A stretch of DNA of 14,002 bases, taken from positions 1-14,002 of IMG/VR virus record IMGVR_UViG_3300029828_000052, one strand, 5' to 3'. Source of the stretch: a virus (taxonomy: Duplodnaviria > Heunggongvirae > Uroviricota > Caudoviricetes). Under the pieces are notes generated by a model. It did no database searches, was not told where the DNA came from, and worked only from the letters and a program-made list of their open reading frames with translations. The position numbers and the translations under genes are program-made. Positions 1 through 14,002 of this stretch are shown piece after piece (the stretch's first letter is position 1; each line of letters opens with the position of its first letter).

Positions 1-2340
1 CTGGCATCGAAGTCTATGGCTTTCCCCAGCTCAACGATTGTGCGTACATCGCGATCGTTGTAGTAACGCCACGGGCAGGGGATCCCCTGCCGTTCGTATG
101 AACGGCGCAAAATCGTGTTGTCGAAGTTGGCTCCATTCCCCCAGACCTGGACAAAAAATTCACCGGAGTTTTCATCTATAAATTCCCGCAATTGCAGTAG
201 CGCATCATCTAACGGGATTTCATCGGTCAGAATGGCAGATTGCGCCTCGCGTGATTGCTTGAGCCACCATTTAATGGTGTCACGATCAATGACTCCGCCA
301 GTAGTTTCCAGATCGATGGTCTTGCTAAATTCCGGTCCCATATCTCCGGTTTGCGGATCGAAAAATATTGCACCTATTGAGATAATCGGGGCATCAGGAT
401 TTTTTCCCATGGTTTCGAGGTCGATCATTAGATGGTCATACGTCCTGCTGGTGGATGTGATTTCGTGATGACCGTTCACCTTAATTGAGTGATCTGCCGC
501 CTCGCCAGTTTCATTATCGCTGGCGTGGTCCTGAGCGCTGCCAGCATTCTCCTTGAGTGGATGTTCAGCGCCTGCCATTTCCTCCGGATCATTTTCCTGA
601 ACTTCAACCTGATTCTCTTCATCGAATGTTTCCTGGTATGTTGCGTCGCCCATCACCGCGCCACAATCAGGGCAGTTGCCGTCGCCGGTCTGACCGCAGG
701 CGGTGCAGACTTTTTCCGCTTCCTGTTGCGCTACTGGCGCAGGTTGTTTCGTTTCTGGCTCGTTTTGTAACGCATTTGAGCTGTTTTGTTCCTCTTTCTG
801 GTCGTTCTGTTCCGTTTCTTGCTGGTTCTGGTTCACAGAATCGCGGGTTTCAATCCCCTTCACCCATTTCGGATCATTCGGGTCGCTAATCCCTGCAACA
901 AATTCACCGCGAGAGGCCGCAAGCAACTTATCGGCGTCAGGCTGGCTGATATTGGCTGCTTGCATAATTTTGTTTACTTCGTCAGCGGTAACTTTTACCT
1001 GATTAACTGGATCTATCTGTGCCTGAGCATCCAGCGATTGCGTGTCCTGGCGATGTTCAGTTGTATCCGGTTCCATTGTTTCAGCCGTTGCCTGTTCATC
1101 TGCCATTGCGTCAGACGGTTGTGATTTTTCCTCATTATTTTTTTCTTCTTCTGTTTCGCGTTCAGCAGCCAGTTCGCGGTTAACTTCTTCCAGGATATCT
1201 TTTTCCGGTGTATGTCGTGCAGCAGCGAGAGTTTCCTCGGAAGGGTTCTCGTGATCAGTCTCTGTTAAATAGGCGTTGATATACCCCTGAAGACGTCCCG
1301 GGTAATGATAAAACTCAGGGTGTGCGCTCCGGATAAGTGCAAAAATAGCGGCGCGGGAATAATCCAGGATACCCGGGATTGCGCGAAGTGCCGCGGACCA
1401 TTCTTTGAACGGACTTTCTTTCTTCCGGACGATTTCTTTTGCGCGACGATAAATGCTGCCCGGAATTTCATAAATATTAAAATCCATCGGAAGTGTGGCC
1501 GCTGCAATCTCCACATCCAGCGTATCGAAGGTGTGTACTAAATTCGGATTGCGATCGGTTTTGTTCCCTCCACCGGCATTAGCACCGGAAGCCGTGCGGG
1601 TGATGCGTGAAACACGATTTCCTTTCATCCACTCTTTTGTCAGCAGACCGCGATCGGTGTAGTCAGCGCCCAGGTATGCTTCGAAAAAAGCAGTCATCAG
1701 TCCCAGATCTGAATTACCAGGATTAGGGAAAACTTTGTCAGTGTCACGAACCAGTTTGTGGAGATCGCGAATTTCCAGCGGTTCGAGTTGCGCTGCTTTA
1801 TTTGAGATGGCCAGCGCGGTAACGGCGGGAAGTTTTTCATCCTGTGCGTTATGTAATGCGCGTAGTTCGCCCCGCGAAACGTGTGTGATCGGTTTTTCGC
1901 TGCCGTGCTGTGCCAGCCATCGAACAGGCAGAATCTGACCTGAAACCGGCAGGAGCATATTCTCCTCAATCTCAGTCATGTCTTCGCCGTTGACGTTGGT
2001 ATTGTCAGTGCTGGCTGGTTTATCCTGAACAGAGGGCGAGGGCGCGATAAGTACCATTGTGATACCATCTTCCCCGCCTTTTTCGTATCGGTTGCAGAAT
2101 TCGGTATCAAACACGCCTTCCGGAGGAAGGTCATTCACAACGGGTAAATGGACGCGAACAGGTTTTTTAAAATCCTCTTCGTCAAATCCTGCATCGTCCA
2201 TTGCGACAACACCGCGTGATATTGCAAGCGATAGTTTTTTTGCTGTGCGCCAGTAAAAACCGCCTTTAATCCCAAGACGTTTTCTGACTTTGTCATTTTT
2301 GGCTTCGTAATATAGTGCAATTTCTTCTTTATCAGTGCTC
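1..2340 (-). CDS. recE: Exodeoxyribonuclease VIII (RecE-family) protein, 3'-truncated by window edge; Cys4 motif and DnaQ-like DEDD exonuclease motifs near the window edge
   Basis: My own translation from ATG at 2340-2338 runs 780 codons to position 1 with no stop; the ORF track lists no minus-strand ORF in this frame, consistent with an open frame leaving the window. GAGG lies 8 nt upstream and an in-frame stop 8 codons upstream. Translation contains stretches I recognise as RecE-like ([50 protein letters not shown]), then [16 protein letters not shown], then MIDLETMG and VWGNGANFD. Confidence 0.7.
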
Positions 2341-2419
2341 ATTGATAAACCTCATTACAGATTTAAGGGTGAACAAATCCCTGCCATTGCTGGCATATAA
2401 AAATGAAACCGGATATTTA

Positions 2420-2623
2420 TTACGGTGCTGGTTTAAGTCCTGCCGGGATTTCGTTATTGTCCATGTGAATAACTTTATCAACCGGATAACAGTTACCGGG
2501 AATTTTCTGTTCTGCTGCGGCAGCCATGCATTCTTTCATCGAACCGTAAATGTCAATAACCAGGTCAACAGGCTCGCCAGTGTTAAGAAAAACAGTCAGA
2601 GTGAGGGCAACAGCAGTATTCAT
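2420..2623 (-). CDS. Small protein (67 aa), YdfD-like position downstream of dicB
   Basis: Internal ATG (2623-2621) of ORF 2420..2677; ATGA start/stop overlap with dicB gives translational coupling; AGGA upstream. Identity as YdfD is by position only. Confidence 0.5.
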   Translation of the reverse strand: MNTAVALTLTVFLNTGEPVDLVIDIYGSMKECMAAAAEQKIPGNCYPVDKVIHMDNNEIPAGLKPAP

Positions 2624-2808
2624 TGCCAGTATCCTTTTTGCATCAGACGTAAACGGGCCAGCATTGAAACAATGCATATTTTATTTAATAGCTCCCGTTC
2701 TTGTTTTCTCTTGTTAATGGCATCTTCAGTAAATACAGGGTTACTGATAGTGACACCAATTTCAAAACAACCTTCAGACGTATTAACGTTTGGTAATAAC
2801 GTTTTCAT
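2620..2808 (-). CDS. dicB: Cell division inhibitor DicB (62 aa)
   Basis: Internal ATG (2808-2806) of ORF 2620..2904 preceded by AGGA; the 62-aa product MKTLLPNVNTSEGCFEIGVTISNPVFTEDAINKRKQERELLNKICIVSMLARLRLMQKGYWQ matches my recollection of DicB in size and sequence; lies about 180 bp downstream of the DicF-like sRNA as in the Qin dicB operon. Confidence 0.8.
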   Translation of the reverse strand: MKTLLPNVNTSEGCFEIGVTISNPVFTEDAINKRKQERELLNKICIVSMLARLRLMQKGYWQ

Positions 2809-2991
2809 TATCGCGTCCTCAACAATGAATTTTGTGATGCAGTGCCTGGTGCCTCCAGGTGACGTTAACCAGTTAACAATTAACGCCGGATACAGAGAAC
2901 CCACCCATAAGAACCAATACGGAAGTCAACTGGCCTTTTTAACTGTTCCGCGTGCGCTGAGCCGCATTCACCGCATCACAAAATTCACTTT

Positions 2992-3050
2992 AAAAAGGGC
3001 GGACATCAGCCAGCAATGAAAACTGATGCCGCCAAAAGGTAATCAACATG
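2992..3050 (-). ncRNA. dicF: DicF-like small RNA with intrinsic terminator (boundaries approximate)
   Basis: Minus strand reads ...UUGAUUACCUUUUGGCGGCAUCAGUUUUCAUUGCUGGCUGAUGUCCGCCCUUUUU. It shares the UUUGGCGG(U/C)AUCAGUUUU core and the GCCGCCCUUUUU-type terminator with DicF as I recall it, and sits immediately upstream of dicB. Confidence 0.6.
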
Positions 3051-3281
3051 GGTTGTTGCAGCTGATTGCCACAACCGGAAGCGCACGGACGAAGATGCCG
3101 GCGGCACGCAACAGAGGGAGAAATAACTTCGCCGTGCGCTTTCGTGTTGTGCCCTGGCTTTTCAGGGATATATCCTTTCAGTAAACTGTCAGTGCCGGAT
3201 TCTTATCCGTGTCCGGCGCACGACCACACGTGGCAGCGTGTTGGTCTCCATTTTTAACCCAGAACCTCAATGGAGGATAAA

Positions 3282-3491
3282 ATGCCAAACAGACCAATAC
3301 ATCCGCTTATTGAAAAACAGATTGAATGTCTGGTTAATCAACTCAGGCAATCAGGGTTATTAAAAACTCATTCAGAGTTAAGACTCACGGAATCAGCATT
3401 TGACGATAAATTAAATAATGCGCTTTATAATGGCATCATTGATTACAATCGTGGTGCTGGTCGCCGTGGCCCTGCTGGTACTGCTTTGTAA
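3282..3491 (+). CDS. Hypothetical small protein (69 aa), convergent with the 212-aa gene
   Basis: ATG at 3282 with GGAGG 5 nt upstream (the ORF track start at 3270 lies inside that SD). Only ORF in a 440-bp stretch. Stops back-to-back with the opposing gene (TAATTA at 3489-3494). No recognisable family. Confidence 0.4.
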   Translation: MPNRPIHPLIEKQIECLVNQLRQSGLLKTHSELRLTESAFDDKLNNALYNGIIDYNRGAGRRGPAGTAL

Positions 3492-4130
3492 TTACCAGTT
3501 AATCCAGAGCGGATAGTGTTCAGCATAAATATAGCTATACACATCCAGGTTGTATTTGTGGTCTGTCCTTAGCAGGTCGCAAATACACGCCGCAGCTTCC
3601 AGGGAAGCGGCTTTGTTGCTGAATAACCATGTAGCAACATTCCAGCGATTATCTTTATCCCACTCTTTTGCGAGAGCTGACACCACGAAGGAGCCGTTGG
3701 TGTTGCCATCAAATACTTCCGTTTCCAGATTTTTAAGTAATGCCTGGTGAATTTTTGCCAGGTATTCAGTCGGAATTTCGCCACGAATTCGGATAAGGTT
3801 GTCATAAACAAACATGTTTCCCGCATATGGCGATTTTTCTTCCTTGTTTTTTAAACCAGCATCATGAGCAAACTGATCAATTTCTTCTTCCGTTGGTTTT
3901 GTATTGATGTTTTGCGCTGTCGCTTCTGCAATTTTCTTTGCCACATTCTCTGGGTCGTGTTTATTTACAGACGCACAGAAATACAATCCGGTAAACGCAT
4001 CGCGCACATTACGAACCATATTATCGATGGCTTCTTTTTCTACGGTACTCAGGTCAAGAGTCGCCAGTTGGGAACGAACTATATTCGCTGCCGTTTCCTG
4101 GAATTGCATTGGTAAATCTTTAAATTCCAT
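3492..4130 (-). CDS. Hypothetical protein (212 aa), no recognisable family; part of an apparent insertion between the ydfC-like gene and DicF
   Basis: Complete ORF in the track; start lies 22 nt downstream of the ydfC-like stop with a GAGG-type SD; translation looks protein-like, not low-complexity. Confidence 0.75.
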   Translation of the reverse strand: MEFKDLPMQFQETAANIVRSQLATLDLSTVEKEAIDNMVRNVRDAFTGLYFCASVNKHDPENVAKKIAEATAQNINTKPTEEEIDQFAHDAGLKNKEEKSPYAGNMFVYDNLIRIRGEIPTEYLAKIHQALLKNLETEVFDGNTNGSFVVSALAKEWDKDNRWNVATWLFSNKAASLEAAACICDLLRTDHKYNLDVYSYIYAEHYPLWINW

Positions 4131-4152
4131 TATTAACCTCGTTGGTTAGCTA

Positions 4153-4371
4153 TTAACGCGGGTATGTAATCATTCTGGCAATGCTTAATGCCGCTGCTTT
4201 TTCCAGCCTGGTGATATCCTGCTCCAGAGCGGACAGATTTTCAGCCTGCTTAGCCCTGGCTTCATTGGCCCATTTCAGATCCTGCGCTGCATTAATTTTC
4301 TGGCGCATCCACTCATAAAGTTCATCATCGGTATAGTCTGGCGCGATGATGACGGGTTCTCGTTTCTGCAT
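4153..4371 (-). CDS. YdfC-like small protein (72 aa)
   Basis: Complete ORF with GAGGA SD; position and size match ydfC of the dicB operon. Confidence 0.7.
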   Translation of the reverse strand: MQKREPVIIAPDYTDDELYEWMRQKINAAQDLKWANEARAKQAENLSALEQDITRLEKAAALSIARMITYPR

Positions 4372-4401
4372 ACTGAATTCCTCGCGGTGATGTTTCGCTT
4401 A

Positions 4402-4530
4402 TCAGCCGTTATATTTTGCCGAACTGGAAAGCGCCTGTTTAAATTCGTTGAAGCTGAGAGCTTCTTCGCCTTCGGCAAGGCCTTCGAAGTATTCTTCGTA
4501 AGCCTTTTCCATGATTGTGTCGAAATCCAT
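4402..4530 (-). CDS. YdfB/YdaG-like small protein (42 aa)
   Basis: My own translation (below the ORF-track size cutoff): MDFDTIMEKAYEEYFEGLAEGEEALSFNEFKQALSSSAKYNG. ATG sits 1 nt after the upstream gene's stop; AGGTGAG SD. Confidence 0.6.
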   Translation of the reverse strand: MDFDTIMEKAYEEYFEGLAEGEEALSFNEFKQALSSSAKYNG

Positions 4531-4531
4531 A

Positions 4532-4687
4532 TCACTCACCTGAGTTTCTTTCCAGCCAGCGACGCGCGCCAGATTCGGTTTTAAACATTTTGCTTTTGGT
4601 ATACGTCATCGCGGTGAACGTGCCGTCCTGGTTTGGGAACACGCCGCATACCAGAGATTCGTTGTTACCAAGATCGATAGTATCCAT
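4532..4687 (-). CDS. YdfA/YdaF-like small protein (51 aa)
   Basis: Internal ATG (4687-4685) of ORF 4532..4780 with GAGG SD: MDTIDLGNNESLVCGVFPNQDGTFTAMTYTKSKMFKTESGARRWLERNSGE. The 31-codon upstream extension runs through the operator sequence and is not used. Confidence 0.65.
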   Translation of the reverse strand: MDTIDLGNNESLVCGVFPNQDGTFTAMTYTKSKMFKTESGARRWLERNSGE

Positions 4688-4765
4688 ATTGACCTCATTT
4701 CCCCTTAACGCCGGGGTAGCGGAACTGTTTGCTGAGAACACCGTGCGGTGTCTTGATGGGTGGTA

Positions 4766-4877
4766 ATTTAGTTTTCTCATGAATTCTGGTCAAGTATTTT
4801 TAATGAGAAAACTCAACATTTAATGCAAAATAAAGCCAATACATTGAAATGTAAGGCTTTAAAATTTGTGAAGGGGG
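4766..4877. promoter_or_regulatory. Leftward early promoter/operator region (PL/OL-like) with two operator-like palindromes
   Basis: AT-rich intergenic region between repressor stop and first early-left gene. TGAGAAAACTCA at 4804-4815 and imperfect copy TTTAGTTTTCTCAT at 4768-4781, centres about 34 bp apart; same motif as the operator at 5336-5349. Confidence 0.5.
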
Positions 4878-5285
4878 TTACTGATGTTTGTTACGTTTGC
4901 GAGCTTCTAGTAGCTCGGTGAATAGGCGATTAAAATTCTCAACGCGGGCACGGAGTTCGCTGATTTGTGCTTGCTGCTCTGATTTTGGAAGTGCGCGATA
5001 CAATCGCAACATCTCCAACTCATCTTCCGATAAGTCTAAGGCGCTGTTGAGTGCAACTGGTGGATCTGGTGTTTTATCCTCGTCACCAAACAGTATCCAA
5101 GTTGGTGAACATTGCAATACCTCAGCCAGGCGATGCAAATTTTGCCCGCGCGGGGCTGTATGGTCGCTTTCCCATAGTGAAATTGATGAGCCAGATACGC
5201 CAGCAGCTTTGCTTAAATCGTTTTGACTTAAACCAACCTGTTTGCGTCTTTCTCTAATTCGTTGACCTAAAGTTTTCTCGTTCAT
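4878..5285 (-). CDS. dicA: HTH XRE-family prophage repressor, DicA-like (135 aa)
   Basis: Complete ORF; N-terminal HTH (LSQNDLSKAAGVSGSSISLWE); VLQCSPTWILFGDEDK and ARVENFNRLFTELLEARKR match my recollection of DicA; divergent from a cro-like gene. No obvious SD, so possibly leaderless. Confidence 0.9.
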   Translation of the reverse strand: MNEKTLGQRIRERRKQVGLSQNDLSKAAGVSGSSISLWESDHTAPRGQNLHRLAEVLQCSPTWILFGDEDKTPDPPVALNSALDLSEDELEMLRLYRALPKSEQQAQISELRARVENFNRLFTELLEARKRNKHQ

Positions 5286-5362
5286 ATTTAGATATCTTAA
5301 TAACCCTTGACTTGAGATTCCTTGAGTGATTACTATTGAGAAAACTCAACTTTGGAGGGGTG
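5286..5362. promoter_or_regulatory. Divergent promoter/operator region (PR/OR-like)
   Basis: -35 TTGACT (5307-5312), 18-nt spacer, -10 TACTAT (5331-5336); perfect palindrome TTGAGAAAACTCAA (5336-5349) overlapping the -10 and +1; CTTGAG half-sites at 5311-5316 and 5321-5326; GGAGGGG SD at 5354-5360. Confidence 0.6.
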
Positions 5363-5590
5363 ATGTTTAAATCAGACGTAATTAATTTTTATGGGACGAA
5401 AGCCAAAGTAGCGAAAGCTGCTGGTGTTGATCCATCTGCTGTTTCTCAATGGGGGGAATTGGTTCCTGAAGGTCGCGCGATGCGCCTGCAAGAGGCATCC
5501 GGCGGGGAACTTCAGTACGACCCCAAAGTTTATGACGAATATCGTAAGGCAAAGCGGGCGGGGCGGTTGAACAATGAAAATCACCCCTGA
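5363..5590 (+). CDS. dicC: Cro-like regulator, DicC/YdaS family (75 aa)
   Basis: ATG at 5363 sits 3 nt after the GGAGGGG SD; the track start at 5336 is a TTG inside the operator. Small basic protein divergent from the repressor gene. Confidence 0.75.
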   Translation: MFKSDVINFYGTKAKVAKAAGVDPSAVSQWGELVPEGRAMRLQEASGGELQYDPKVYDEYRKAKRAGRLNNENHP

Positions 5591-6125
5591 ACAGGTTTGT
5601 GAGGCTCTGGATGCCTGGGTATGCCGACCAGGAATGACACAGGAGCAGGCGACGATATTAATCACGGAAGCATTCTGGGCTCTGAAAGAACGCCCGAACA
5701 TCGATGTTCAACGCGTCACGTTTAATGATGGCGAGGTTGATCAACGGGCGCTGGGCGTTAACCGGGTGAAGATATTCGAACGCTGGAAAGCTATCGACAC
5801 CAGGGATAAGCGGAAAAAATTCACGGCGCTGATTCCGGCAATTATGGAGGCTATCCGAATTAGTGATTTCAGGTTGTATCGTGAGATCAGTGATGGAAAA
5901 AGCATTACGTACATGATCGCCGGATTAAACAAAGAATATGGCGATGTGGTGGAGTCTGGGCTGCTTTTTGCGGATCCATCTGTTGTGGAACGTGAGACTG
6001 ACGAGCTTATAGAAAAAGCTATTGCTTTCAAGCATGCGTATCGTCAGCAATATCAATATTACTTTGCAGATAAACAAATGTCTGCCAGGGGTTCGTATGA
6101 GTATCGATGCACTACGATGGGCTAA
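5574..6125 (+). CDS. YdaT-like (CII-like) regulatory protein (183 aa)
   Basis: Complete ORF overlapping the cro-like gene by 17 nt; second gene after cro; contains ALIPAIMEAI, resembling what I recall of Rac YdaT. Confidence 0.7.
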   Translation: MKITPEQVCEALDAWVCRPGMTQEQATILITEAFWALKERPNIDVQRVTFNDGEVDQRALGVNRVKIFERWKAIDTRDKRKKFTALIPAIMEAIRISDFRLYREISDGKSITYMIAGLNKEYGDVVESGLLFADPSVVERETDELIEKAIAFKHAYRQQYQYYFADKQMSARGSYEYRCTTMG

Positions 6126-7137
6126 AAAGGTGAAAACCGGCAGTTCATCCAGTAAGTCTGTATTGACCTGGCTTGCTGATATGTGCGGTGCCGATTTGTG
6201 TGCATACCCGTCTGTATCTGCACTGGCAGAAGTAACGGAACTGAACAAAAAGACTGTGCAGGACAGCTTACGACACCTGATGGAGATTGGGTTAATTGTT
6301 GATACCGGTGAGAGAAAAGGCAAAACAAAGCAAATTGTGGTGTACCGACTTATCGGTGTAGAAGAAAGTGTTGCCGAGCCTGAATACACCCAAAAACGGG
6401 AGTCTTTAAAGGTGGGTAAAATTGGTGCTGTTAATAAAAACAGTACCGAAAATGGTTATGTTTCAGCACAAAACAGACCCAAAAACGGAACTCTTAGCTG
6501 CATGGAAAATAACCAAAGACACCCAAATTTTCCATCAAAGACACCCAAAAACGGATCACGGAACCCAAAGGAACCCAAAGATCTAAACCCCACACATAAC
6601 GCACGCGAGAGTGCTCCGACCAGTGAGCAGGAGGTTTTGTCGTTACAGGCAGCCCCCCCTGTATTCCTGGATGGCCTGAGCGAACCCATCGGAAAATTCC
6701 CGATGAGCGATAGCTGGTATCCGTCACGGGATTTTCGACGACGGGCTGCGTTGTGGGGGATGGCTTTGCCGGAGACAGAATTTACACCTGCTGAACTTGC
6801 CGCCTTCCGGGACTACTGGGCAGCGGAGGGTAAAGTTTTCACGCAGGTTCAGTGGGAGCAGAAATTCGCCCGTCACGTAAATCACGTCAGGGCGCAGGCT
6901 AAACCAGTCAGCAAGGGGGTAAACCATGCAGCAGCACCAGGTGGCACCGCATCACGGGCAGTTCAGGAAATTCGGGCAGCACGTGAGCAGTGGGAACGTG
7001 AAAACGGATTTATCAACGACGGAAACTGCCTGGAAGCTGTGGGAACTCATGGGGGAGGTTTATTCGAACCGCTGGACCCAGAAGAACGGGGCCGCACCTT
7101 CGAAGCTCTGGATTGCACAGATTGGCGCGATGACTGA
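6097..7137 (+). CDS. Replication initiation protein, O-like (N-terminal HTH, low-complexity linker, DnaT-like C-terminal region)
   Basis: ATG at 6097 with AGGGG SD (track start 6022 is further upstream). N-terminus MSIDALRWAKK...SVSALAEVTELNKKTVQDSLRHLMEIGLI is HTH-like; linker NRPKNGTLSCMENNQRHPNFPSKTPKNGSRNPKEPK coincides with the iteron-like repeats; C-terminal DSWYPSRDF...FRDYWAAEGKVFTQVQWEQKFARHV. The last ~70 codons overlap the P-like ORF. Confidence 0.75.
   Translation: MSIDALRWAKKVKTGSSSSKSVLTWLADMCGADLCAYPSVSALAEVTELNKKTVQDSLRHLMEIGLIVDTGERKGKTKQIVVYRLIGVEESVAEPEYTQKRESLKVGKIGAVNKNSTENGYVSAQNRPKNGTLSCMENNQRHPNFPSKTPKNGSRNPKEPKDLNPTHNARESAPTSEQEVLSLQAAPPVFLDGLSEPIGKFPMSDSWYPSRDFRRRAALWGMALPETEFTPAELAAFRDYWAAEGKVFTQVQWEQKFARHVNHVRAQAKPVSKGVNHAAAPGGTASRAVQEIRAAREQWERENGFINDGNCLEAVGTHGGGLFEPLDPEERGRTFEALDCTDWRDD
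6475..6580. repeat. Iteron-like direct repeats inside the O-like gene linker (candidate origin)
   Basis: AGACCCAAAAACGGAAC (6475-6491), AGACACCCAAATTTTCC (6517-6533), AGACACCCAAAAACGGATC (6539-6557), tandem GAACCCAAAG x2 (6561-6580); 21-22 bp phasing. Confidence 0.45.
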
Positions 7138-7591
7138 GCAGCAAATCCGGCAGGTCTGCCGCCAGTGCATGGACCGTTGCAGGGCAGGTGAAACATGGCC
7201 TCCGGACCTGGCTGAGTTTGTGGCGCTGATTTCGGAGAGCGGGGCAAATCCATTTGGTCTGACGGTGGATAACGTGATGGAGGAGTACCGACGCTGGCGC
7301 AACGAGTCCTGGCGATACGACGGAAGCGATAAATACCCGTGGTCTCAGCCTGTGCTGTATCACATTTGTCTCGAGATGCGTTCCAAGGGGATTGAGCGCC
7401 AGATGACCGAAGGGGAGTTAAAACGGCTTGCAGAACGGCAACTGGCGAAATGGGCAAAGCATGTTGGTAACGGACTGAGTGTTCCACCCGTCCGTAGGCA
7501 ACTGGCAGCACCCATACGTCCTGCGGGACCAACGCCAATTGAGTTGCTGAAACAGGAATATGAACGCAGGAAAGCGGCAGGTTTTGTTTGA
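6926..7591 (+). CDS. Replication protein P-like helicase loader (221 aa from ATG 6926; alternative starts 7049 or 7130)
   Basis: WPPDLAEFVALI and DKYPWSQPVLYHICLEMR resemble lambda P (GQFVAWC, SYPWKSNAHYWLV) as I recall it. ATG 6926 has a strong SD (AAGGGGG, 6-nt spacing) but overlaps the O-like ORF by 212 nt. Confidence 0.7.
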   Translation: MQQHQVAPHHGQFRKFGQHVSSGNVKTDLSTTETAWKLWELMGEVYSNRWTQKNGAAPSKLWIAQIGAMTEQQIRQVCRQCMDRCRAGETWPPDLAEFVALISESGANPFGLTVDNVMEEYRRWRNESWRYDGSDKYPWSQPVLYHICLEMRSKGIERQMTEGELKRLAERQLAKWAKHVGNGLSVPPVRRQLAAPIRPAGPTPIELLKQEYERRKAAGFV

Positions 7592-7620
7592 GTTGATAAG
7601 TAATTTTACCGGGAGGGTTT

Positions 7621-8016
7621 ATGGCGAAACCTTTTACACCCGAACAGCGGGAAGAGCTGAAGGCACGAATTATCGGATTGGTACGCAAAAATGGACGCAT
7701 GACGATGTCGCAACTGGAGAGAGCGACGGGAGCTGGCTGGCATTCGGTCCGGCGCTGCCTTGTGGATGTACTGGCTTGTGGTGATTTATACATGTCCGGG
7801 GAATACGGTGTTTTTGCATCAGAGCAGGCGTATCGTGAATGGCGTAAGACACCGGAGAAAACAACTGACCAGACACTGATTCGAAAGTTACCAGACGGAG
7901 AAATACGCCGCTACGACAGACACCTGAACATAATCTGTCGCGAGTGCCGGAAGAGTGAGGTTATGCAGCGAGTGCTGGCGTTTTATCAGGGGAAATTTCA
8001 GGAGGTGATGCTGTGA
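7621..8016 (+). CDS. Hypothetical protein (131 aa)
   Basis: Complete ORF; GGGAGGG SD just upstream of ATG; 4-nt overlap with the next gene. Confidence 0.7.
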   Translation: MAKPFTPEQREELKARIIGLVRKNGRMTMSQLERATGAGWHSVRRCLVDVLACGDLYMSGEYGVFASEQAYREWRKTPEKTTDQTLIRKLPDGEIRRYDRHLNIICRECRKSEVMQRVLAFYQGKFQEVML

Positions 8017-8279
8017 GCGAATCAAAATGTCAGGTTAATGGCAATCAGATAGAACCATGTGCGGCACTGGCAAAAGCCCTTGAGCATGATGCTGAATACA
8101 CGATGCGAAAAGGTCTGCTGATATACAAAATCTGGAATGAGAATTTAACTCGCGCCCCTGATTTGGTGATGTTGCGTTCCGGTAAATTTTCTAAATCACC
8201 TATTCGAGTCTCATTTTGCCCGTTCTGTGGTGAAAGTCTGAAAACATGGAAAAAGGAGACAACCAGTGAGCAGGATTGA
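8013..8279 (+). CDS. Hypothetical protein (88 aa), Cys-containing (CPFCG)
   Basis: GTG start at 8013 with AGGAGGT SD 6 nt upstream; GTGA overlap with the upstream gene. Confidence 0.65.
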   Translation: MSESKCQVNGNQIEPCAALAKALEHDAEYTMRKGLLIYKIWNENLTRAPDLVMLRSGKFSKSPIRVSFCPFCGESLKTWKKETTSEQD

Positions 8280-8862
8280 CTATCAGGCACTGCGTGGGGC
8301 GGCAGAAGCAATAAAAATAGCAGCCACACCACAAAAATTGCTGGCATTTCGTATGAAAGTCACACCTCAGGTTGTGCTGGCTCTACTGGATGAACGAGAT
8401 GCATTAAATGAACGCCTAGCCGAACTGGAGGCTGATTTAGCAGGGCTGGCCGAAGACCAACAGAAATCGATTGAGTCAATTAAGCAGGCTGATGAAGCTG
8501 TTAAGTTGGCACACGAGAAGTTTTCGGCGCTTGCGGCGGAGAATGAGCTGGCTCGTAAGGCAGTTCAGGCATTCTGCGATGTTGTTGGCGACAACACCGA
8601 GGTTATCGCTGAGGTGGTTGGGCGAGATAGCGTTCTGGTTATTTTGGAGGACATGAAGGCAACAGGAAATATGCCAGCCACCGATGCTTTTCTGGCTGAA
8701 GTACGGGCGCAGGGCGTGGAGATGCTGGCAAAAAATCATCAGAGTATCGTCAATGCACTTAAGGGAGATTCTTTATTTTCTGATGGTGAATACCGACATG
8801 CAGCTATTGTTTCCGCAGCTGTATATTTCGCTGCAGAGCTTCGCAAAGGAGGCAACCAGTGA
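8266..8862 (+). CDS. ead/Ea22-like family protein (198 aa)
   Basis: GTG start with AGGAG SD; N-terminal IDYQALRGAAEA and LLDERDALNERLAELEA are typical of Ea22-like proteins; paralog of the next gene. Confidence 0.75.
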   Translation: MSRIDYQALRGAAEAIKIAATPQKLLAFRMKVTPQVVLALLDERDALNERLAELEADLAGLAEDQQKSIESIKQADEAVKLAHEKFSALAAENELARKAVQAFCDVVGDNTEVIAEVVGRDSVLVILEDMKATGNMPATDAFLAEVRAQGVEMLAKNHQSIVNALKGDSLFSDGEYRHAAIVSAAVYFAAELRKGGNQ

Positions 8863-9467
8863 GAAAAATTAATTATCAGGCGCTACGTGATGCGGCAGAA
8901 AAGGCAACACAGGGTGAATGGGTCGCATTTATTTCGCCGGGCAAATACGGCACGTACGCCGTGCACACACCAGGAGATAATCATCACGGAGATATTGTCG
9001 ACTGGCCTGGATTCGACGGACAGAAAAACGCAGAGAACAACGCTCGTTATATCGCAGCTTTCAACCCTGAAGTAGTGCAGGCGCTGTTGGATGAACGAGA
9101 AGCCCAAAGCAAACGCATTGCAGAGCTGGAGGCTAATTTCACGGTGCTGGCAGTGGAGAATGTTGGAATAAAGTCTGCAATCCCAGAGCCACGGGATATT
9201 GAGGATGACAATGACAATATGGATGACGTCTCTCTTGCTGAAGACTTCGGATTCAATCATGCAATAGAATGGATGAGGAGACGGATTGAAACTCCAGCCA
9301 CCGACGCTTTCCTGGCGGATGTGCGGGCTGGGGCGTTTAACGACCTTTGCGCGGCGTTTGTCAGGCACGCAAAAGTTGCAGGACTGGATGATGCCGATAC
9401 CGTAACGCTTAAGGAAGTGACAGAAGTATTGTTGCATTGTGCGGAACAGATTCGCGCGCCTGAATAA
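8859..9467 (+). CDS. ead/Ea22-like family protein (202 aa), tandem paralog
   Basis: GTG start in GTGA overlap with the upstream paralog; shares INYQALRDAAEKA, LLDEREAQSKRIAELEA and PATDAFLADVRAG with it. Confidence 0.75.
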   Translation: MRKINYQALRDAAEKATQGEWVAFISPGKYGTYAVHTPGDNHHGDIVDWPGFDGQKNAENNARYIAAFNPEVVQALLDEREAQSKRIAELEANFTVLAVENVGIKSAIPEPRDIEDDNDNMDDVSLAEDFGFNHAIEWMRRRIETPATDAFLADVRAGAFNDLCAAFVRHAKVAGLDDADTVTLKEVTEVLLHCAEQIRAPE

Positions 9468-9562
9468 TTAAATTTAGTGTTGTAAATAAAATTTAATCCT
9501 TAACCGGAGGGATTTCTGCACCCTCAGAACATCAGGAGGCCGCCCGAAAGGGCGGTAATGAA

Positions 9563-9745
9563 ATGCGAAAGTTCAAAATAATTATTGAAACGGGAATAGC
9601 TGGTGGAGATTTTGAAGATGTATTCGAAGTGGATGATGATGCGACACCAGATGAAATAAAGGACGAAGCAAAAGAAATTTTCTTTAACTACTGCAATTAC
9701 TCATATCACGAAATAAAAGACGAGGAGGAAGAACAAAATGGCTGA
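9563..9745 (+). CDS. Small highly acidic protein (60 aa)
   Basis: Complete ORF; very D/E-rich; AGGAGG lies about 30 nt upstream, separated from the ATG by a GCCGCCC-GAAA-GGGCGG hairpin. Confidence 0.55.
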   Translation: MRKFKIIIETGIAGGDFEDVFEVDDDATPDEIKDEAKEIFFNYCNYSYHEIKDEEEEQNG

Positions 9746-9914
9746 TTTTGGTTCAACTAAATATAACGCCAGTTTTGAAGAATGGCATGAACTGTTAATG
9801 GATTATGCAGAGTTACGCGGTGGAAGTGCCGCTGATGCTGAAGCATGGCGTGATGATTATGAAGCAGGAAAAACTCCGGTCGAAGCATATTGTGATGAGT
9901 GGGGCGATGAATGA
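9738..9914 (+). CDS. Small acidic protein (58 aa)
   Basis: My own translation (below track cutoff): MADFGSTKYNASFEEWHELLMDYAELRGGSAADAEAWRDDYEAGKTPVEAYCDEWGDE. ATGGCTGA overlap with the upstream gene; GAGGAGG SD. Confidence 0.5.
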   Translation: MADFGSTKYNASFEEWHELLMDYAELRGGSAADAEAWRDDYEAGKTPVEAYCDEWGDE

Positions 9915-9935
9915 ACCACCACAAGAGGGGGCATA

Positions 9936-10112
9936 ATGAAAATGCGGATGGGAAATTGTTTATTGCCGTATCTGGTGCGGTTTGGGGCGTCGTCATTAAC
10001 AGTTATTCCACATGTCATGATGGTTGACAATATTATCCCGGCACCGAAGCGCCGTACCGGTATTGCAGCGGCACGACGTGCAGCAAAGAAACGCAGGAGA
10101 GCAAAACGATGA
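9936..10112 (+). CDS. Small protein (58 aa) with hydrophobic N-terminus and Arg/Lys-rich C-terminus
   Basis: My own translation: MKMRMGNCLLPYLVRFGASSLTVIPHVMMVDNIIPAPKRRTGIAAARRAAKKRRRAKR. AGAGGGGG SD 5 nt upstream; ATGA overlap with the next ORF. Confidence 0.4.
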   Translation: MKMRMGNCLLPYLVRFGASSLTVIPHVMMVDNIIPAPKRRTGIAAARRAAKKRRRAKR

Positions 10113-10297
10113 AAAACCGTAAAGCAAAAATTCTGTTAGCTCGCAGAAACGGTCCTGGCGTCTGGCAGTGGGTGAGACTCAGCAACCGACGAATGGGGTT
10201 GATGAAATATTACGGGATGATGGATTGTGGTTTTTGCAAAAAGCCCAGCGCGGCGCAAAACCGCTGGAAAAACCACTTGCGCACTAAAGGAGAGTGA
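10109..10297 (+). CDS. Small basic protein (62 aa)
   Basis: Complete ORF; GGAGAG SD; translationally coupled to neighbours on both sides. Confidence 0.5.
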   Translation: MKNRKAKILLARRNGPGVWQWVRLSNRRMGLMKYYGMMDCGFCKKPSAAQNRWKNHLRTKGE

Positions 10298-10298
10298 T

Positions 10299-10814
10299 AT
10301 GGCGTTAACACACCGCGAACTCTGTCAGATTGCGTATAAGTTCCTTAAGCGCAACGGGTTCAAGGTTTGTTTTCATGACCGCTTTATAGCTGTAACCAGT
10401 ACCGGAGAACAGCCAGATGCTATGGGATTCAGAAATTCAGCATCATGCCTGATAGAGGCGAAATGTTCTCGTGCTGACTTGTTGGCAGATAGAAAAAAGC
10501 GTTTTCGTAAAAATCCGTCTCTTGGAATGGGCGACTGGCGATTCTTTATTAGTGAGCCGGGAATTATTTCAGTTGAGGATTTACCACCTGGCTGGGGATT
10601 ACTTCACGTTGTTAACGGAAGAGTACGGAAAGTACATGGGTGGCCCAAGGGGAATTGCTGTTGGGGTAACCCTGAAGATAAACCTTTTATTGGGAATAAG
10701 CAGGTTGAATGCGATTACATGTTATCTGCATTAAGGCGCATGGAGTTGAGAGGGCACCTTAATGAAATATATGACGGCGTAATTGTTAATAAGAAAGAAG
10801 GAAACGCGGCATGA
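10299..10814 (+). CDS. Hypothetical protein (171 aa) with PD-(D/E)XK nuclease-like motif
   Basis: ATG at 10299 with AAGGAG SD 6 nt upstream (the track start at 10227 overlaps the previous gene). GEQPDAMGF followed by CLIEAKCS fits a PD...ExK signature. Confidence 0.65.
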   Translation: MALTHRELCQIAYKFLKRNGFKVCFHDRFIAVTSTGEQPDAMGFRNSASCLIEAKCSRADLLADRKKRFRKNPSLGMGDWRFFISEPGIISVEDLPPGWGLLHVVNGRVRKVHGWPKGNCCWGNPEDKPFIGNKQVECDYMLSALRRMELRGHLNEIYDGVIVNKKEGNAA

Positions 10815-11317
10815 CCACTATTACCAAAGAGCGACTACTGACAATCAAGCAGTGGCGCGAAACATACGGACCTGGTAGCAACGTTATACTGCCAGCAGAA
10901 GAAGCGGAAGAACTGGCACGGATTGCACTGGCATCACTGGAAGCAGAGCCGGTGGTTTACATGTGGGATAGCGAAAGAAAAGATATTGATGCCCCCGGGT
11001 ATTATCGGGCTGAGCATTTAGTGTTCGCTGAGAGTAGTGTTAAGCAATGGGGAGGGCGAGTTGTTCCACTTTACACCGCCCCGCCAGCGACGGTAGTGCC
11101 GGAATTTGAAACATGGTTTAACAGCCAGGAGCCAGGGAGGAGTATATGCAGCACACAGATTCGTCGCTCCCTTCAGGAAATCTCATGGAACGCCTGCTGC
11201 GCCGCTCCCTTCAGGAAATCTCATGGAACGCCTGCTGCGCCGCCATGCTTCAGGGGAAAGGCGATGGTATCCTCACCAATGAGGATACCAAAGGGGACGT
11301 TCAGGTACGGGAATTAA
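10811..11317 (+). CDS. Hypothetical protein, C-terminus frameshifted by a 38-bp tandem duplication (possible pseudogene)
   Basis: ATGA overlap with the upstream gene; protein-like up to the repeat at about 11165, then an aberrant tail (PFRKSHGTPAAPPCFRGKAMVSSPMRIPKGTFRYGN). Confidence 0.55.
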   Translation: MTTITKERLLTIKQWRETYGPGSNVILPAEEAEELARIALASLEAEPVVYMWDSERKDIDAPGYYRAEHLVFAESSVKQWGGRVVPLYTAPPATVVPEFETWFNSQEPGRSICSTQIRRSLQEISWNACCAAPFRKSHGTPAAPPCFRGKAMVSSPMRIPKGTFRYGN

Positions 11318-11442
11318 CAATGCTGATTAAACAACTGGCTAGCCAATTGAGGAAAGCGAAGCCGAACTGCAAATTACCGGAGAAGGCGATGGTCTACCTG
11401 AAGCGAAACGGACTGATAAGCGCGGAGGATATTTTACGATGA
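11146..11442 (+). CDS. ORF carrying the displaced C-terminal part of the upstream gene (98 aa from ATG 11146)
   Basis: ATG at 11146 with GGGAGGAG SD; after the duplication the frame reads a protein-like tail (GILTNEDTKGDVQVRELTMLIKQLASQLRKAK...). Removing one repeat copy fuses it in-frame to 10811. Confidence 0.4.
   Translation: MQHTDSSLPSGNLMERLLRRSLQEISWNACCAAMLQGKGDGILTNEDTKGDVQVRELTMLIKQLASQLRKAKPNCKLPEKAMVYLKRNGLISAEDILR
11165..11243. repeat. Perfect 38-bp tandem direct duplication (2 copies) inside coding sequence
   Basis: GCTCCCTTCAGGAAATCTCATGGAACGCCTGCTGCGCC at 11166-11203 and again at 11204-11241, checked base by base; period-38 identity spans 11165-11243. Confidence 0.95.
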
Positions 11443-11522
11443 CCTGGCCTGAAGCATTCACAACGGTAGGAATTGCGATGGCGGTGGCGCTGGTGGTGTA
11501 TTCGATTTGCCGCTGGGGATAA
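11439..11522 (+). CDS. Putative small hydrophobic peptide (27 aa)
   Basis: My own translation: MTWPEAFTTVGIAMAVALVVYSICRWG. ATGA overlap with the stop of 11146..11442; GGAGG about 10 nt upstream. Speculative. Confidence 0.3.
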   Translation: MTWPEAFTTVGIAMAVALVVYSICRWG

Positions 11523-11674
11523 AAACGGTTTGCGGGAAAAGGAGAGTTAAGTAGAATTGCTGCGGGTGCTTGAGGCTATCTGCCTCAGGCATGAACACCA
11601 AAAGGCAGATAGAGAAAAGCCCCAGTTAACATTACGCGTCCTGCAAGACGCTTAACATTAATCTGAGGCTCCCT

Positions 11675-11887
11675 ATGCATGACAACATCAGGTTAGCCTC
11701 TTACGTGCCGAAAGGCAAGGAGAAGCAGGCTATGAAGCAGCAAAAGGCGATGTTAATCGCCCTGATCGTCATCTGTTTAACCGTCATAGTGACGGCACTG
11801 GTAACGAGGAAAGACCTCTGCGAGGTACGAATCCGAACCGGCCAGACGGAGGTCGCTGTCTTCACAGCTTACGAACCTGAGGAGTAA
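11675..11887 (+). CDS. Mok-like reading frame (in-frame N-terminal extension of hok, 70 aa)
   Basis: Complete 70-aa ORF that contains Hok; this architecture matches the annotated chromosomal mok/hok pairs as I recall them. Confidence 0.5.
   Translation: MHDNIRLASYVPKGKEKQAMKQQKAMLIALIVICLTVIVTALVTRKDLCEVRIRTGQTEVAVFTAYEPEE
11732..11887 (+). CDS. hokD: Hok/Gef-family type I toxin (51 aa), HokD-like
   Basis: MKQQKAMLIALIVICLTVIVTALVTRKDLCEVRIRTGQTEVAVFTAYEPEE: single transmembrane helix and conserved C-terminus typical of Hok; followed by a 3' stem-loop and an intrinsic terminator. Confidence 0.85.
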   Translation: MKQQKAMLIALIVICLTVIVTALVTRKDLCEVRIRTGQTEVAVFTAYEPEE

Positions 11888-11955
11888 GAGACCAGGCGAG
11901 GGAGAAATCCCTCGCCACCTCTGATGTGTCAGGCATCCTCAATGCACCCGCACTT

Positions 11956-11980
11956 AACCCGCTTCGGCGGGTTTATTTTA
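11956..11980 (+). terminator. Rho-independent terminator downstream of hok
   Basis: ACCCGC-TTCG-GCGGGT stem-loop followed by TTATTTTAT. Confidence 0.7.
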
Positions 11981-12345
11981 TCTGTAAATATTTTTATAAA
12001 AATAATGCCCACACACAGCATAAAACAAAAAGTATCACAGATAAAAAAGGAGCGTAATGTGCAGATTTGTTGTTTTCCATATTTACTCACTTTAACATAA
12101 TCAATATTGATATGGTTGTTGTTTTGGTGGTTTCAAACGAGATGTTATGGTGATCTGGTAAAATTGCATAACATTAAAATTTAATTTATCTAATCGCTTT
12201 TAATAATAAGCGTTGTGTTTATCCCAACAATCTGTTGTTTGACTTTTATTCCATTAATGTAGGGGCTTTACACTGGAACCAGTTTATTTATACTTTATAC
12301 GCCAGCCTGAACAACTGGCACCTGCTGCGCCAGCAGAGACAACCG

Positions 12346-12624
12346 ATGGCGCACGATACCAAATTACACAATTCTGATGATTCTGCCGTCTTTGCCAGCA
12401 GGTGCGGACGGCGTTTTCATGCATTCAAATCGGACTGGTTCCAGCATCCACCATGCACTGAAGAGCAGGCTGAATGGATAATTCAGTGTTACCGCAGGCG
12501 CGGATACGAGGTTAAAAAAGCCCTTAGCCTCGACTACCGTCACTGGATAATCTCCGTCAGGCTTCCTTACTCCGAACGCCCACCGCGTCCGTCCCGCACA
12601 TTCCAGCAACGCATCTGGAGGTAA
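12346..12624 (+). CDS. Hypothetical protein (92 aa), Rem-like position between hok and the DUF968 gene
   Basis: ATG at 12346 inside ORF 12235..12624 (track start is a TTG in the AT-rich region); weak SD; stop 1 nt before the next gene's GTG. Confidence 0.5.
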   Translation: MAHDTKLHNSDDSAVFASRCGRRFHAFKSDWFQHPPCTEEQAEWIIQCYRRRGYEVKKALSLDYRHWIISVRLPYSERPPRPSRTFQQRIWR

Positions 12625-12625
12625 C

Positions 12626-13675
12626 GTGCGGGTATTACTTCGACCTGTTCTGGTACCGGAACTCGGGCTGGTGATAGTTAAGCCGGGCCGTGAATCCATG
12701 CCGGTATTCCACAATACCCGGGTACTGGTGGAGCCGGAACCGAAAAGCATGCGTAATCTGCCGTCCGGGGTCGTTCCTGCCGTTCGCCAGCCGCTGGCGG
12801 AGGATAAATCATTACTGCCATTTTTCAGCGACGAACGAGTGATTCGTGCTGCTGGTGGCGCTGGCGCATTGTCTGACTGGTTACTGCGCCATGTTAAATC
12901 CTGCCAGTGGCCACACGGCGATTATCACCATAGTGAAACCGTCATTCACCGTTATGGTACCGGCGCAATGGTGTTGTGCTGGCACTGCGACAACCAGTTG
13001 CGTGACCAGACCTCCGAATCACTTGAGCAACTTGCTCACCAAAACTTGTCAGCATGGATGATTGACGTCATTCGTCACGCAATGAATGGCACACAGGAGC
13101 GGGAATTATCGCTGGCTGAATTATCCTGGTGGGCGGTCCGCAATCAGGTGGCGGACGCGCTACCGGAGGCGGTATTACGTCGTTCGCTGGGGTTGCGTGC
13201 GGAAAAAATCCGCTCAATGTACCGTGAAAGCGACATCGTACCGGGAGAGCAGACCGCCACCAGCATACTGAAACAGCGCACAAAAAATCTTGCGCCGCTG
13301 CCTCACGCCCACCAGCAACAGAACCCACCACAGGAAAAGACGGTGGTCAGCATTGCCGTTGATCCTGAGTCTCCGGAATCTTTCATGAAACGACCTAAAC
13401 GTCGCCGCTGGGTTAACGAGAAATACACACGCTGGGTGAAGACACAGCCGTGTGCGTGTTGTGGTAAGCCAGCCGACGATCCCCATCACCTGATTGGTCA
13501 TGGTCAGGGCGGAATGGGGACAAAATCTCACGATATTTTCACGCTACCGCTGTGTCGGGAGCATCACAACGAGCTTCATGCGGATCCGCTGGCGTTCGAA
13601 GAAAAGCATGGTTCTCAGGTTGATTTAATTTTTCGTTTTCTTGATCACGCCTTTGCAACTGGCGTGCTTGGGTAA
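12626..13675 (+). CDS. DUF968 domain protein, YdfU-like (349 aa), with Cys/His HNH-like motif
   Basis: GTG start with GGAGG SD; C-terminal CACCGKPADDPHHLIGHGQGG...CREHHNELH; sits immediately upstream of rusA as in Qin-type prophages. Confidence 0.85.
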   Translation: MRVLLRPVLVPELGLVIVKPGRESMPVFHNTRVLVEPEPKSMRNLPSGVVPAVRQPLAEDKSLLPFFSDERVIRAAGGAGALSDWLLRHVKSCQWPHGDYHHSETVIHRYGTGAMVLCWHCDNQLRDQTSESLEQLAHQNLSAWMIDVIRHAMNGTQERELSLAELSWWAVRNQVADALPEAVLRRSLGLRAEKIRSMYRESDIVPGEQTATSILKQRTKNLAPLPHAHQQQNPPQEKTVVSIAVDPESPESFMKRPKRRRWVNEKYTRWVKTQPCACCGKPADDPHHLIGHGQGGMGTKSHDIFTLPLCREHHNELHADPLAFEEKHGSQVDLIFRFLDHAFATGVLG

Positions 13676-13687
13676 AAGAGGTGACTG

Positions 13688-14002
13688 ATGCTCATAGATT
13701 TGGTTTTACCTTACCCGCCGACGGTGAACACTTACTGGCGACGCCGTGGCAGCACATATTTTATCTCGGAGGAGGGAAAGCGTTATCGCCGGGCTGTGGT
13801 GCTTATTGTTCGCCAGCAGCGGCTGAAATTAAGCCTGTCCGGAAGGCTGGCGATAAAGGTGATTGCAGAGCCACCGGATAAGCGCCGCCGCGACCTGGAC
13901 AATATCCTGAAGGCACCACTGGATGCGCTGACGCATGCCGGACTACTTATAGACGACGAGCAGTTTGATGAAATCAATATTGTGCGCGGTCAGGTCGTTC
14001 CT
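13688..14002 (+). CDS. rusA: Holliday junction resolvase RusA, 3'-truncated by window edge
   Basis: My own translation from ATG 13688 (AAGAGG SD): MLIDLVLPYPPTVNTYWRRRG...PDKRRRDLDNILKAPLDALTHAG, matching the RusA signature (PDRRRRDLDN..K...DAL); open to the window end. Confidence 0.9.
   Translation, partial: MLIDLVLPYPPTVNTYWRRRGSTYFISEEGKRYRRAVVLIVRQQRLKLSLSGRLAIKVIAEPPDKRRRDLDNILKAPLDALTHAGLLIDDEQFDEINIVRGQVVP

Follow-up and report, generated by a model that had tools for sequence, protein, structure and literature searches.

A RecE-type N-terminal region joined to a DexA-related DEDDh exonuclease domain in a Qin-type lambdoid prophage

Introduction

Exodeoxyribonuclease VIII (RecE) of the Rac prophage of Escherichia coli K-12 carries a C-terminal 5′-3′ nuclease module of the PD-(D/E)XK type (DUF3799). 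According to a review (PMC11611040), the nuclease domain comprises residues 564-866, and in PMC11257833 a truncated active RecE is named E588; for the comparisons made here the module was taken as the residues from about 588 or 606 to 866. RecE relatives without a nuclease domain are called 'RecE-2' in passages of Zheng, Casjens, Davidson, Amundsen and Smith (2025, PMC12315714), and passages of the same paper describe genes for DnaQ-like 3′-5′ nucleases in or near the early-left operons of lambdoid phages, often by int and outside the recombination (Rec) module. Characterized exonucleases of the DEDDh type include DexA of phage T4 (8KEL/8KEN) and its E. coli homologue EcD ('HREX', PMC12153337). 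Here, a gene at the edge of a 14,002-nt stretch of viral DNA (IMG/VR virus record IMGVR_UViG_3300029828_000052, positions 1 to 14,002; this whole stretch is referred to as the window) was analyzed, in which a RecE-type N-terminal region is joined to a DexA-related DEDDh domain. The analysis followed up a sequence-only reading of the window, in which a RecE-like protein with a Cys4 motif and a DnaQ-like exonuclease domain had been noticed.

The gene very probably encodes a chimera of 818 amino acids (aa) with a RecE-type head, a joint in a disordered linker and a DexA-related DEDDh exonuclease that replaces the PD-(D/E)XK nuclease, and its product would act as a Mg2+-dependent 3′ exonuclease.

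Gene structure and domain organization

All coordinates are window positions, and the exonuclease gene is located on the minus strand. The open reading frame (ORF) begins with an ATG at window position 2342, contains 780 stop-free codons and exits the window at position 3. A gene running off the window edge had been proposed with an extent of 1-2340; the gene itself was confirmed and its start had to be moved to 2342. Extension beyond position 1, which had been suggested as a check, was achieved with a 449-kb metagenome scaffold of the European Nucleotide Archive (locus L005), to which window positions 1-10342 are 99.99% identical. The gene is complete in this scaffold and encodes 818 aa (protein P0121), all 780 visible residues being identical. 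The 38 residues outside the window are RTAIPFEGERHNALDDARYQAKYVSAIWQKLIPSQADF and include the Exo III motif HNALDD. The features of the gene are as follows.

3..2342, minus strand: partial coding sequence of the RecE-N::DEDDh exonuclease, 780 of 818 codons; the last 38 codons and the stop codon lie past window position 1
2350..2353, minus strand: GAGG Shine-Dalgarno-like sequence with a 7-nt spacer to the ATG, read from the sequence
1143..2342, minus strand: folded N-terminal module of the RecE type, aa 1-400, in three segments predicted with confidence
1776..2177, minus strand: match to Pfam PF06630 (Exonuc_VIII), aa 56-189, E 6.4e-27
717..1142, minus strand: mostly disordered net-acidic region, aa 401-542, 20% D+E versus 8% K+R, from the AlphaFold2 model and composition
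660..707, minus strand: Cys4 motif C546-x2-C549-x7-C557-x2-C560, aa 546-561, a zinc-knuckle or zinc-ribbon candidate
450..659, minus strand: acidic disordered linker, aa 562-631, 27% D+E over aa 572-631
3..449, minus strand: DEDDh (DnaQ-fold) exonuclease domain, aa 632-780 of 632-818, from Pfam, the DexA profile and Foldseek
405-428, minus strand: Exo I, MIDLETMG, aa 639-646 (D641, E643), read from the translation
120-146, minus strand: Exo II, VWGNGANFD, aa 733-741 (D741), read from the translation
Just beyond the window edge, minus strand: Exo III (H791, D796), from the 99.99% identical contig

The DEDDh exonuclease domain

The Cys4 segment, Exo I and Exo II were all found where the sequence-only reading had placed them. 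The Pfam family PF16473 (Rv2179c-like 3′-5′ exoribonuclease domain) matches aa 637-778 with an E-value of 2.8e-53 and 180.7 bits (cut-off 27), and the match covers profile positions 2-147 of 177 because the window ends there. The catalytic residues D641, E643, D741, H791 and D796 correspond to D7, E9, D119, H186 and D191 of T4 DexA, and this pentad is invariant in an alignment with T4 DexA and six stand-alone relatives. For the sequence search of the PDB the 818-aa homologue of strain EC21Z-048 was used as query (it differs from P0121 at 7 of the 780 residues compared). One molecule was matched, T4 DexA (8KEL and its mutant 8KEN), with a phmmer E-value of 2.5e-6, and a profile built from 16 close relatives lifted this match to 1.2e-15. 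In an AlphaFold2 model based on 74 sequences aa 632-818 are predicted with high confidence, the predicted local distance difference test (pLDDT) score ranging roughly from 70 to 96 by 10-residue block. With this model T4 DexA was the top Foldseek match (1.5e-8), followed by RNase T, oligoribonuclease (Orn) and REXO2, with a probability of 1.00. On profile, pentad and predicted structure, the C-terminal domain is thus established as a complete DEDDh (RNase H-like, DnaQ) fold, and its closest characterized relative is a 3′-5′ DNA exonuclease, T4 DexA. From this we infer a metal-dependent 3′-5′ exonuclease activity of the protein. DexA and EcD have the DEDDh fold and all five catalytic residues in common with the window protein; they differ in that the window protein has a 630-aa N-terminal extension, and the identity to DexA is only 27%, several DexA loops being absent.

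The name of the Pfam family, RefSeq names that include '3′-5′ exoribonuclease domain-containing protein' and the strong structural similarity to RNase T, oligoribonuclease and REXO2 would fit an exoribonuclease or oligonucleotidase that trims or degrades RNA, such as operon transcripts and small RNAs (sRNAs), or short oligonucleotides. This alternative is unlikely. No Rv2179c chain was among the PDB matches, neither with the single sequence at E-values up to 1 nor with the profile at up to 0.1, and the strong matches are to T4 DexA, a DNA exonuclease. Moreover, the remainder of the protein is common to RecE, an exonuclease of double-stranded DNA, and DEDDh enzymes such as RNase T cut DNA too, given that the matched structures are DNA complexes. 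The fold thus does not decide the substrate.

A second alternative was weighed, in which the protein is a superinfection-exclusion nuclease of the 'HREX' type that degrades the 5-hydroxymethylcytosine (5hmC)-modified DNA of T-even phages and spares host DNA. The C-terminal domain is homologous to DexA and has every catalytic residue, and the accessory genes of prophages near int are often defence genes. EcD digests T4 DNA and protects cells, and bacterial DexA homologues come from Escherichia more often than from any other genus (PMC12153337). However, the residues linked to 5hmC recognition in PMC12153337 are not kept: W152 of DexA is replaced by Y761 and D169 by A775, the latter in a loop where the DexA alignment is less certain. 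Residue D90 of DexA, which is located at the tetramer interface and the loss of which has been linked to the sparing of host DNA (PMC12153337), is retained as D713. EcD, which begins with MIDTET, is not among the 120 closest relatives, the gene is the end of a repressor-controlled early-left operon in which no promoter of its own was detected (see below), and the 630-aa RecE-type extension is left unexplained. The only match in PADLOC was to a generic CRISPR-associated DEDDh model, and membership in a defence system was rejected. Taken together, such an anti-phage function appears improbable. A scan of genome contigs with the 20-mer of the EcD reverse primer gave one chance match, in a metagenome-assembled genome of Acetatifactor.

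The RecE-type N-terminal region, the Cys4 element and the joint

The statement that the N-terminal 600 residues or so resemble RecE was upheld, in that residues 1-617 are homologous to K-12 RecE. The homology ends with ETGEAAD (aa 611-617), which corresponds to ETGEVAD in K-12 RecE with D588 as the last residue; past aa 617, the codon of which is at window position 492-494, the identity falls to noise in the alignment. The likeness to K-12 RecE is mosaic, with 90-97% identity for aa 197-256 and 550-579 and far greater divergence for aa 1-106 and 257-400. By alignment, the joint is placed in the segment where RecE nuclease fragments start, within a linker predicted to be disordered.

Membership in the RecE family itself was not found, and the label RecE-like holds for the N-terminal 617 residues only. 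Model positions 1-602 of 877 of the NCBIfam RecE model NF007259 align to residues 1-620, with an equivalog score of 903.8 bits that is below the curated cut-off of 1269 (K-12 RecE scores 1830). The Pfam family PF12684 (DUF3799, PD-(D/E)XK 5′-3′ nuclease), present in K-12 RecE, has no match in the window protein. Thus, three of four RecE features are missing (equivalog score, PD-(D/E)XK nuclease and adjacent recT) and only the PF06630 region is present; the protein is therefore not RecE. As the sequence-only reading had surmised, the architecture of the C-terminal domain differs from that of K-12 RecE, being DEDDh (3′-5′) instead of PD-(D/E)XK (5′-3′).

The same reading had listed the Cys4 motif next to the exonuclease motifs and had named the presence of this segment in K-12 RecE as a refutation. 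K-12 RecE does carry the Cys4 part of it within the shared region (C517-x2-C520-x7-C528-x2-C531, CNACGQTGGDNCPDCG) and not the DEDD part. The motif therefore marks this subgroup of RecE and not the chimera. Of 60 long representative homologues (alignment A3), only 7 have it, and these include both nuclease types. By its CxxC-x7-CxxC pattern it is a candidate zinc element; the score for the Pfam family DZR, 13.4 bits, is below the cut-off of 27.3, and the pLDDT in the AlphaFold2 model is about 67.

In the AlphaFold2 model the N-terminal region comprises three well-packed segments (aa 1-103, 116-250 and 259-400), and aa 1-400 modelled alone reached a mean pLDDT of 92.3 and a predicted template modelling score of 0.64. 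Neither the PDB nor BFVD yielded a structural relative of this module. The Cys4 element is flanked by long, net-acidic stretches predicted to be disordered (401-452, 498-542 and 572-631), with pLDDT below 50 for 401-452 and 498-542, and the most acidic of them is aa 572-631 with 27% D+E and 3% K+R. Within aa 401-542, which are still homologous to K-12 RecE, short helices are predicted at 453-477 and 500-508.

The ratio of nonsynonymous to synonymous substitution rates (dN/dS), determined against the copy of phage vB_EcoS-640R1, lies between 0.14 and 0.18 within aa 1-540 and falls to 0.09 in the DEDDh domain; for the Cys4-plus-linker part (aa 541-617) it is about 1, a value derived from only 16 substitutions. 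The N-terminal region is under purifying selection.

Frequency and modularity

When 1.84 billion representative proteins were scanned in full by HMMER with aa 1-620 as query, only 264 clusters were obtained at E <= 1e-3, and the RecE-type N-terminal family is therefore narrow. The representatives of 450 aa or longer number 81: a DEDDh domain is present in 14, a PD-(D/E)XK domain in 22 and neither in 45. Similarity in the N-terminal region is not tied to the type of the C-terminal domain: P0243 is 82% identical over aa 1-260, yet it carries PD-(D/E)XK, and P0241, 63% identical, carries DEDDh. The combinations of head and nuclease have therefore arisen more than once. Homologues of the RecE N-terminal region without a recognizable nuclease tail, as described in passages of PMC12315714, were found here as well. 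Ten of the 45 representatives with neither domain, 670-814 aa long (P0249, P0303, P0308, P0319, P0321, P0322, P0347, P0366, P0376 and P0384) have tails of 280-410 aa that match neither DEDDh nor PD-(D/E)XK and in which no C-terminal Pfam domain was found. These tails may be a C-terminal module of a third kind, or the ten proteins may correspond to the 'RecE-2' proteins of Zheng et al.

The DEDDh domain also occurs alone. Stand-alone prophage proteins of 180-190 aa occur in E. coli, Salmonella and Klebsiella; they share 59-88% identity with the C-terminal domain and lack the RecE-type N-terminal region (P0039, P0066 and P0103 as well as those of mEpX2 and PY54, gp51). A tblastn search gave matches of the size of the DEDDh domain in many phage genomes; in the phages mEpX2 and PhiR55_1 the match is near the start of the record, at 1.5-3.2 kb.

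The frequency in E. coli was determined with 5426 complete genomes. The whole gene (at least 80% coverage) is present in 1271 of them and the DEDDh module in 4069 (75%), at 8098 places and with up to 7 per genome. The nuclease module of K-12 RecE was found in 1736 genomes, fewer than half as many as carry the DEDDh module.

A sister chimera is represented by P0250 (823 aa), a YdfE-type exonuclease. Over its C-terminal 388 aa, which comprise Cys4, linker and DEDDh, it shows 90% identity to the window protein, and it shares the chromosomal locus and the order dicB, ydfD, exonuclease and int; in contrast, the relationship of its N-terminal part of about 430 aa to the RecE-type module is only distant (23% identity, E 7e-9). 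The N-terminus of P0250 is 99% identical to the product of the ydfE pseudogene in the Qin prophage of K-12 MG1655 (L003:20079-20843; the first 255 aa of P0250). A first alignment had let ydfE appear as an unrelated gene, which was overturned by the comparison with P0250. Since ydfE matches the head of P0250, Qin of K-12 once held the sister chimera, which is now cut off at the insertion sequence IS2E. In two short E. coli proteins, P0049 and P0062, a YdfE N-terminus is joined straight to a DEDDh domain that lacks Exo I; they are probably inactive deletion derivatives of the YdfE-type chimera.

The strong mosaicism of the family, the existence of truncated or Exo I-less forms such as P0049 and P0062 and the IS2-truncated relative ydfE in K-12 raise the question of whether the window gene is itself a decaying, functionless pseudogene that arose by illegitimate recombination. 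In view of the intact ORF of 818 aa with a complete catalytic pentad, dN/dS values of 0.09-0.18 outside the linker, and full-length copies in at least 1271 complete genomes with the DEDDh module in 4069, this is extremely improbable.

Prophage context

The following features are located upstream of the exonuclease gene.

2420..2623, minus strand: ydfD-like gene (DUF1482), same orientation as the exonuclease gene
2620..2808, minus strand: dicB, cell-division inhibitor, same transcriptional direction
2997..3048, minus strand: DicF-like sRNA, Rfam 39.4 bits versus a gathering score of 48, E 2e-6

They are followed, further upstream and in the same orientation, by two ORFs with no assigned function, a DUF1391 gene and a repressor gene of the DicA/cI type, and beyond the divergent promoter region by cro, ydaT, an O-like gene and P. 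In the L005 scaffold the exonuclease gene is followed by an excisionase gene, a tyrosine integrase gene, ynfP and rspB; this is where the Qin prophage is attached in K-12. The order dicB, ydfD, exonuclease gene, xis and int is shared by the L005 contig and two other prophages. The host element is a Qin-type lambdoid prophage, and the exonuclease gene is probably the last gene of its repressor-controlled early-left operon, ahead of xis and int. No sigma-70-like promoter was found directly upstream of the exonuclease gene.

The DicF-like RNA, which lies upstream of dicB, was missed at the default Rfam threshold because its score is below the gathering score, and a weak match to STnc100 (2776-2999) overlaps it. 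The two ORFs with no assigned function encode 212 aa (3492-4130, minus strand) and 72 aa (4153-4371, minus strand). Both are conserved and belong to the PHROGs families phrog_2151 and phrog_1744, respectively, which are of unknown function; neither has a match in Pfam or PADLOC. They were considered as candidates for a hidden annealing protein and rejected, as they match only these families.

A recT-like gene, for which the sequence-only reading had suggested looking next to the exonuclease gene, does not follow: excisionase and integrase genes lie downstream in L001, L005, L006 and L007. The same arrangement without recT was found after a 98.9% identical copy in strain EC21Z-048 and after the copy in vB_EcoS-640R1 (88% identical), a phage integrated beside potC. 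No homologue of recT, bet, erf or gam was found in the early-left operon, either in the window or in its extension. Because a RecT partner is missing, the protein is not a recombinase of the RecET type.

The window contains six Chi sites (GCTGGTGG), compared with 0.47 expected from shuffled sequences, none of which gave six.

447-454, plus strand: Chi site
9599-9606, plus strand: Chi site
11489-11496, plus strand: Chi site
12851-12858, plus strand: Chi site
13257-13264, minus strand: Chi site
13309-13316, minus strand: Chi site

The prophage appears to be without a Rec module, and its richness in Chi sites is in keeping with the class of lambdoid phages described in passages of PMC12315714 as 'no Rec module, Chi-rich'. 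The Chi site at 447-454 is located inside the exonuclease gene, at the boundary of linker and DEDDh domain.

The position of the gene bears on a further alternative, namely that the protein is a functional analogue of RecE whose partner is RecA or an unlinked single-strand annealing protein and which produces 5′ instead of 3′ overhangs. It occupies the position of recE in Rac, between kil/dicB-type genes and xis-int, it shares the N-terminal region that in RecE improves linear-linear recombination (PMC11611040), and DnaQ-like nucleases occur within some lambdoid Rec modules according to passages of PMC12315714. On the other hand, homologues of recT, bet, erf and gam are missing from the operon as stated above, the polarity would be opposite to that of every characterized phage recombination exonuclease, the abundance of Chi sites suggests dependence on RecBCD, and passages of PMC12315714 state that recombination is usually lowered by 3′-5′ exonucleases. 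A role of this kind is accordingly considered quite unlikely.

In summary, homology to RecE of Rac extends over the N-terminal 617 residues and takes in both the Cys4 motif and the acidic linker, and the gene is located at an equivalent position of the early-left operon upstream of xis-int. Unlike in Rac, the nuclease is of the DEDDh type (3′-5′) and not PD-(D/E)XK with DUF3799 (5′-3′), recT, ralR and rcbA are not adjacent, and the gene upstream is ydfD and not racC.

Further features were found outside the early-left operon. A sok antitoxin RNA at 11564-11737 on the plus strand (Rfam RF01794, 118 bits) shows that the nin-like region has a toxin-antitoxin locus of the hok/sok type; hokD is located at the corresponding position of the related locus L001. 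Two adjoining genes of the Ead/Ea22 type at 8266-8862 and 8859-9467 (plus strand; 198 and 202 aa) lie downstream of the replication genes, their assignment being taken from precomputed Pfam hits on the identical contig L005.

Discussion

The results are best accounted for by a chimeric exonuclease in which a folded module of about 400 aa and a disordered net-acidic region with a Cys4 knuckle, which are both homologous to residues 1-588 of Rac RecE, are followed by a DEDDh domain related to T4 DexA in place of the PD-(D/E)XK nuclease, with the presumed recombination joint within the disordered linker. The enzyme would depend on Mg2+ and remove nucleotides from 3′ ends. DNA, either as DNA ends or in single-stranded form, is the more likely substrate. 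The DEDDh active site would be tethered to the RecE-type module by a long, flexible acidic linker, and this module may target the chimera to wherever it targets RecE. Production would be expected after prophage induction, on the dicF-dicB-ydfD transcript, as the DicA-type repressor should silence the operon in the lysogen. Since a Rec module is apparently absent and the DNA is rich in Chi sites, processing of DNA ends or degradation of DNA alongside host RecBCD is the most likely role. This assignment of trimming or degrading DNA alongside the host machinery is a best guess, held with low confidence, and the weakest step of the proposal.

Several points weigh against the chimeric DNA exonuclease as proposed. 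The names given by Pfam and RefSeq are those of an exoribonuclease, and since RNase T and Orn are close structural neighbours, RNA or short oligonucleotides are possible substrates. The scan for promoters is a weak test, and expression in the lysogen from an unrecognized promoter is possible. The N-terminal part of RecE, with its 588 residues, is described as 'of unknown function' in a review (PMC11611040). As passages of PMC12315714 state that 3′-5′ exonucleases of the DnaQ type usually inhibit homologous recombination, a role in recombination is not obvious. Finally, no paper describing the fusion or its joint, or testing the protein, was found in the literature search; specifically, the passages of PMC12315714 retrieved by term search describe neither a RecE-N::DnaQ fusion nor its joint or its frequency.

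The architecture as such is not new, as identical proteins are already in public databases and several PHROGs families cover the window protein. RefSeq names near-identical proteins 'exonuclease' or '3′-5′ exoribonuclease domain-containing protein', and in some records such proteins are mislabelled 'exodeoxyribonuclease VIII', including the record of the 88% identical phage copy. For the window protein this name is wrong. The protein was overlooked because its equivalent in K-12, ydfE, is cut off by IS2. Of interest are a DEDDh module that is commoner than the canonical RecE nuclease module and a shared head with a fold for which no relative is known.

Recombineering makes heavy use of RecE. 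In E. coli the N-terminal region of RecE occurs on a nuclease of opposite polarity without RecT as well, which suggests that this module has a function independent of 5′-3′ resection. A broader and more tentative idea, possible although we would not expect it to hold, is that the RecE head of about 400 aa is a portable adaptor indifferent to the polarity of the nuclease, and that the DEDDh chimera has a dedicated role in Chi-rich prophages without a Rec module. Such an adaptor could have been joined repeatedly, within the acidic linker, to PD-(D/E)XK, to DEDDh or to no recognizable nuclease. If this were true, the role of the chimera might be, for example, the preparation of DNA ends for RecBCD or the destruction of defence-related DNA such as the multicopy single-stranded DNA (msDNA) of retrons.

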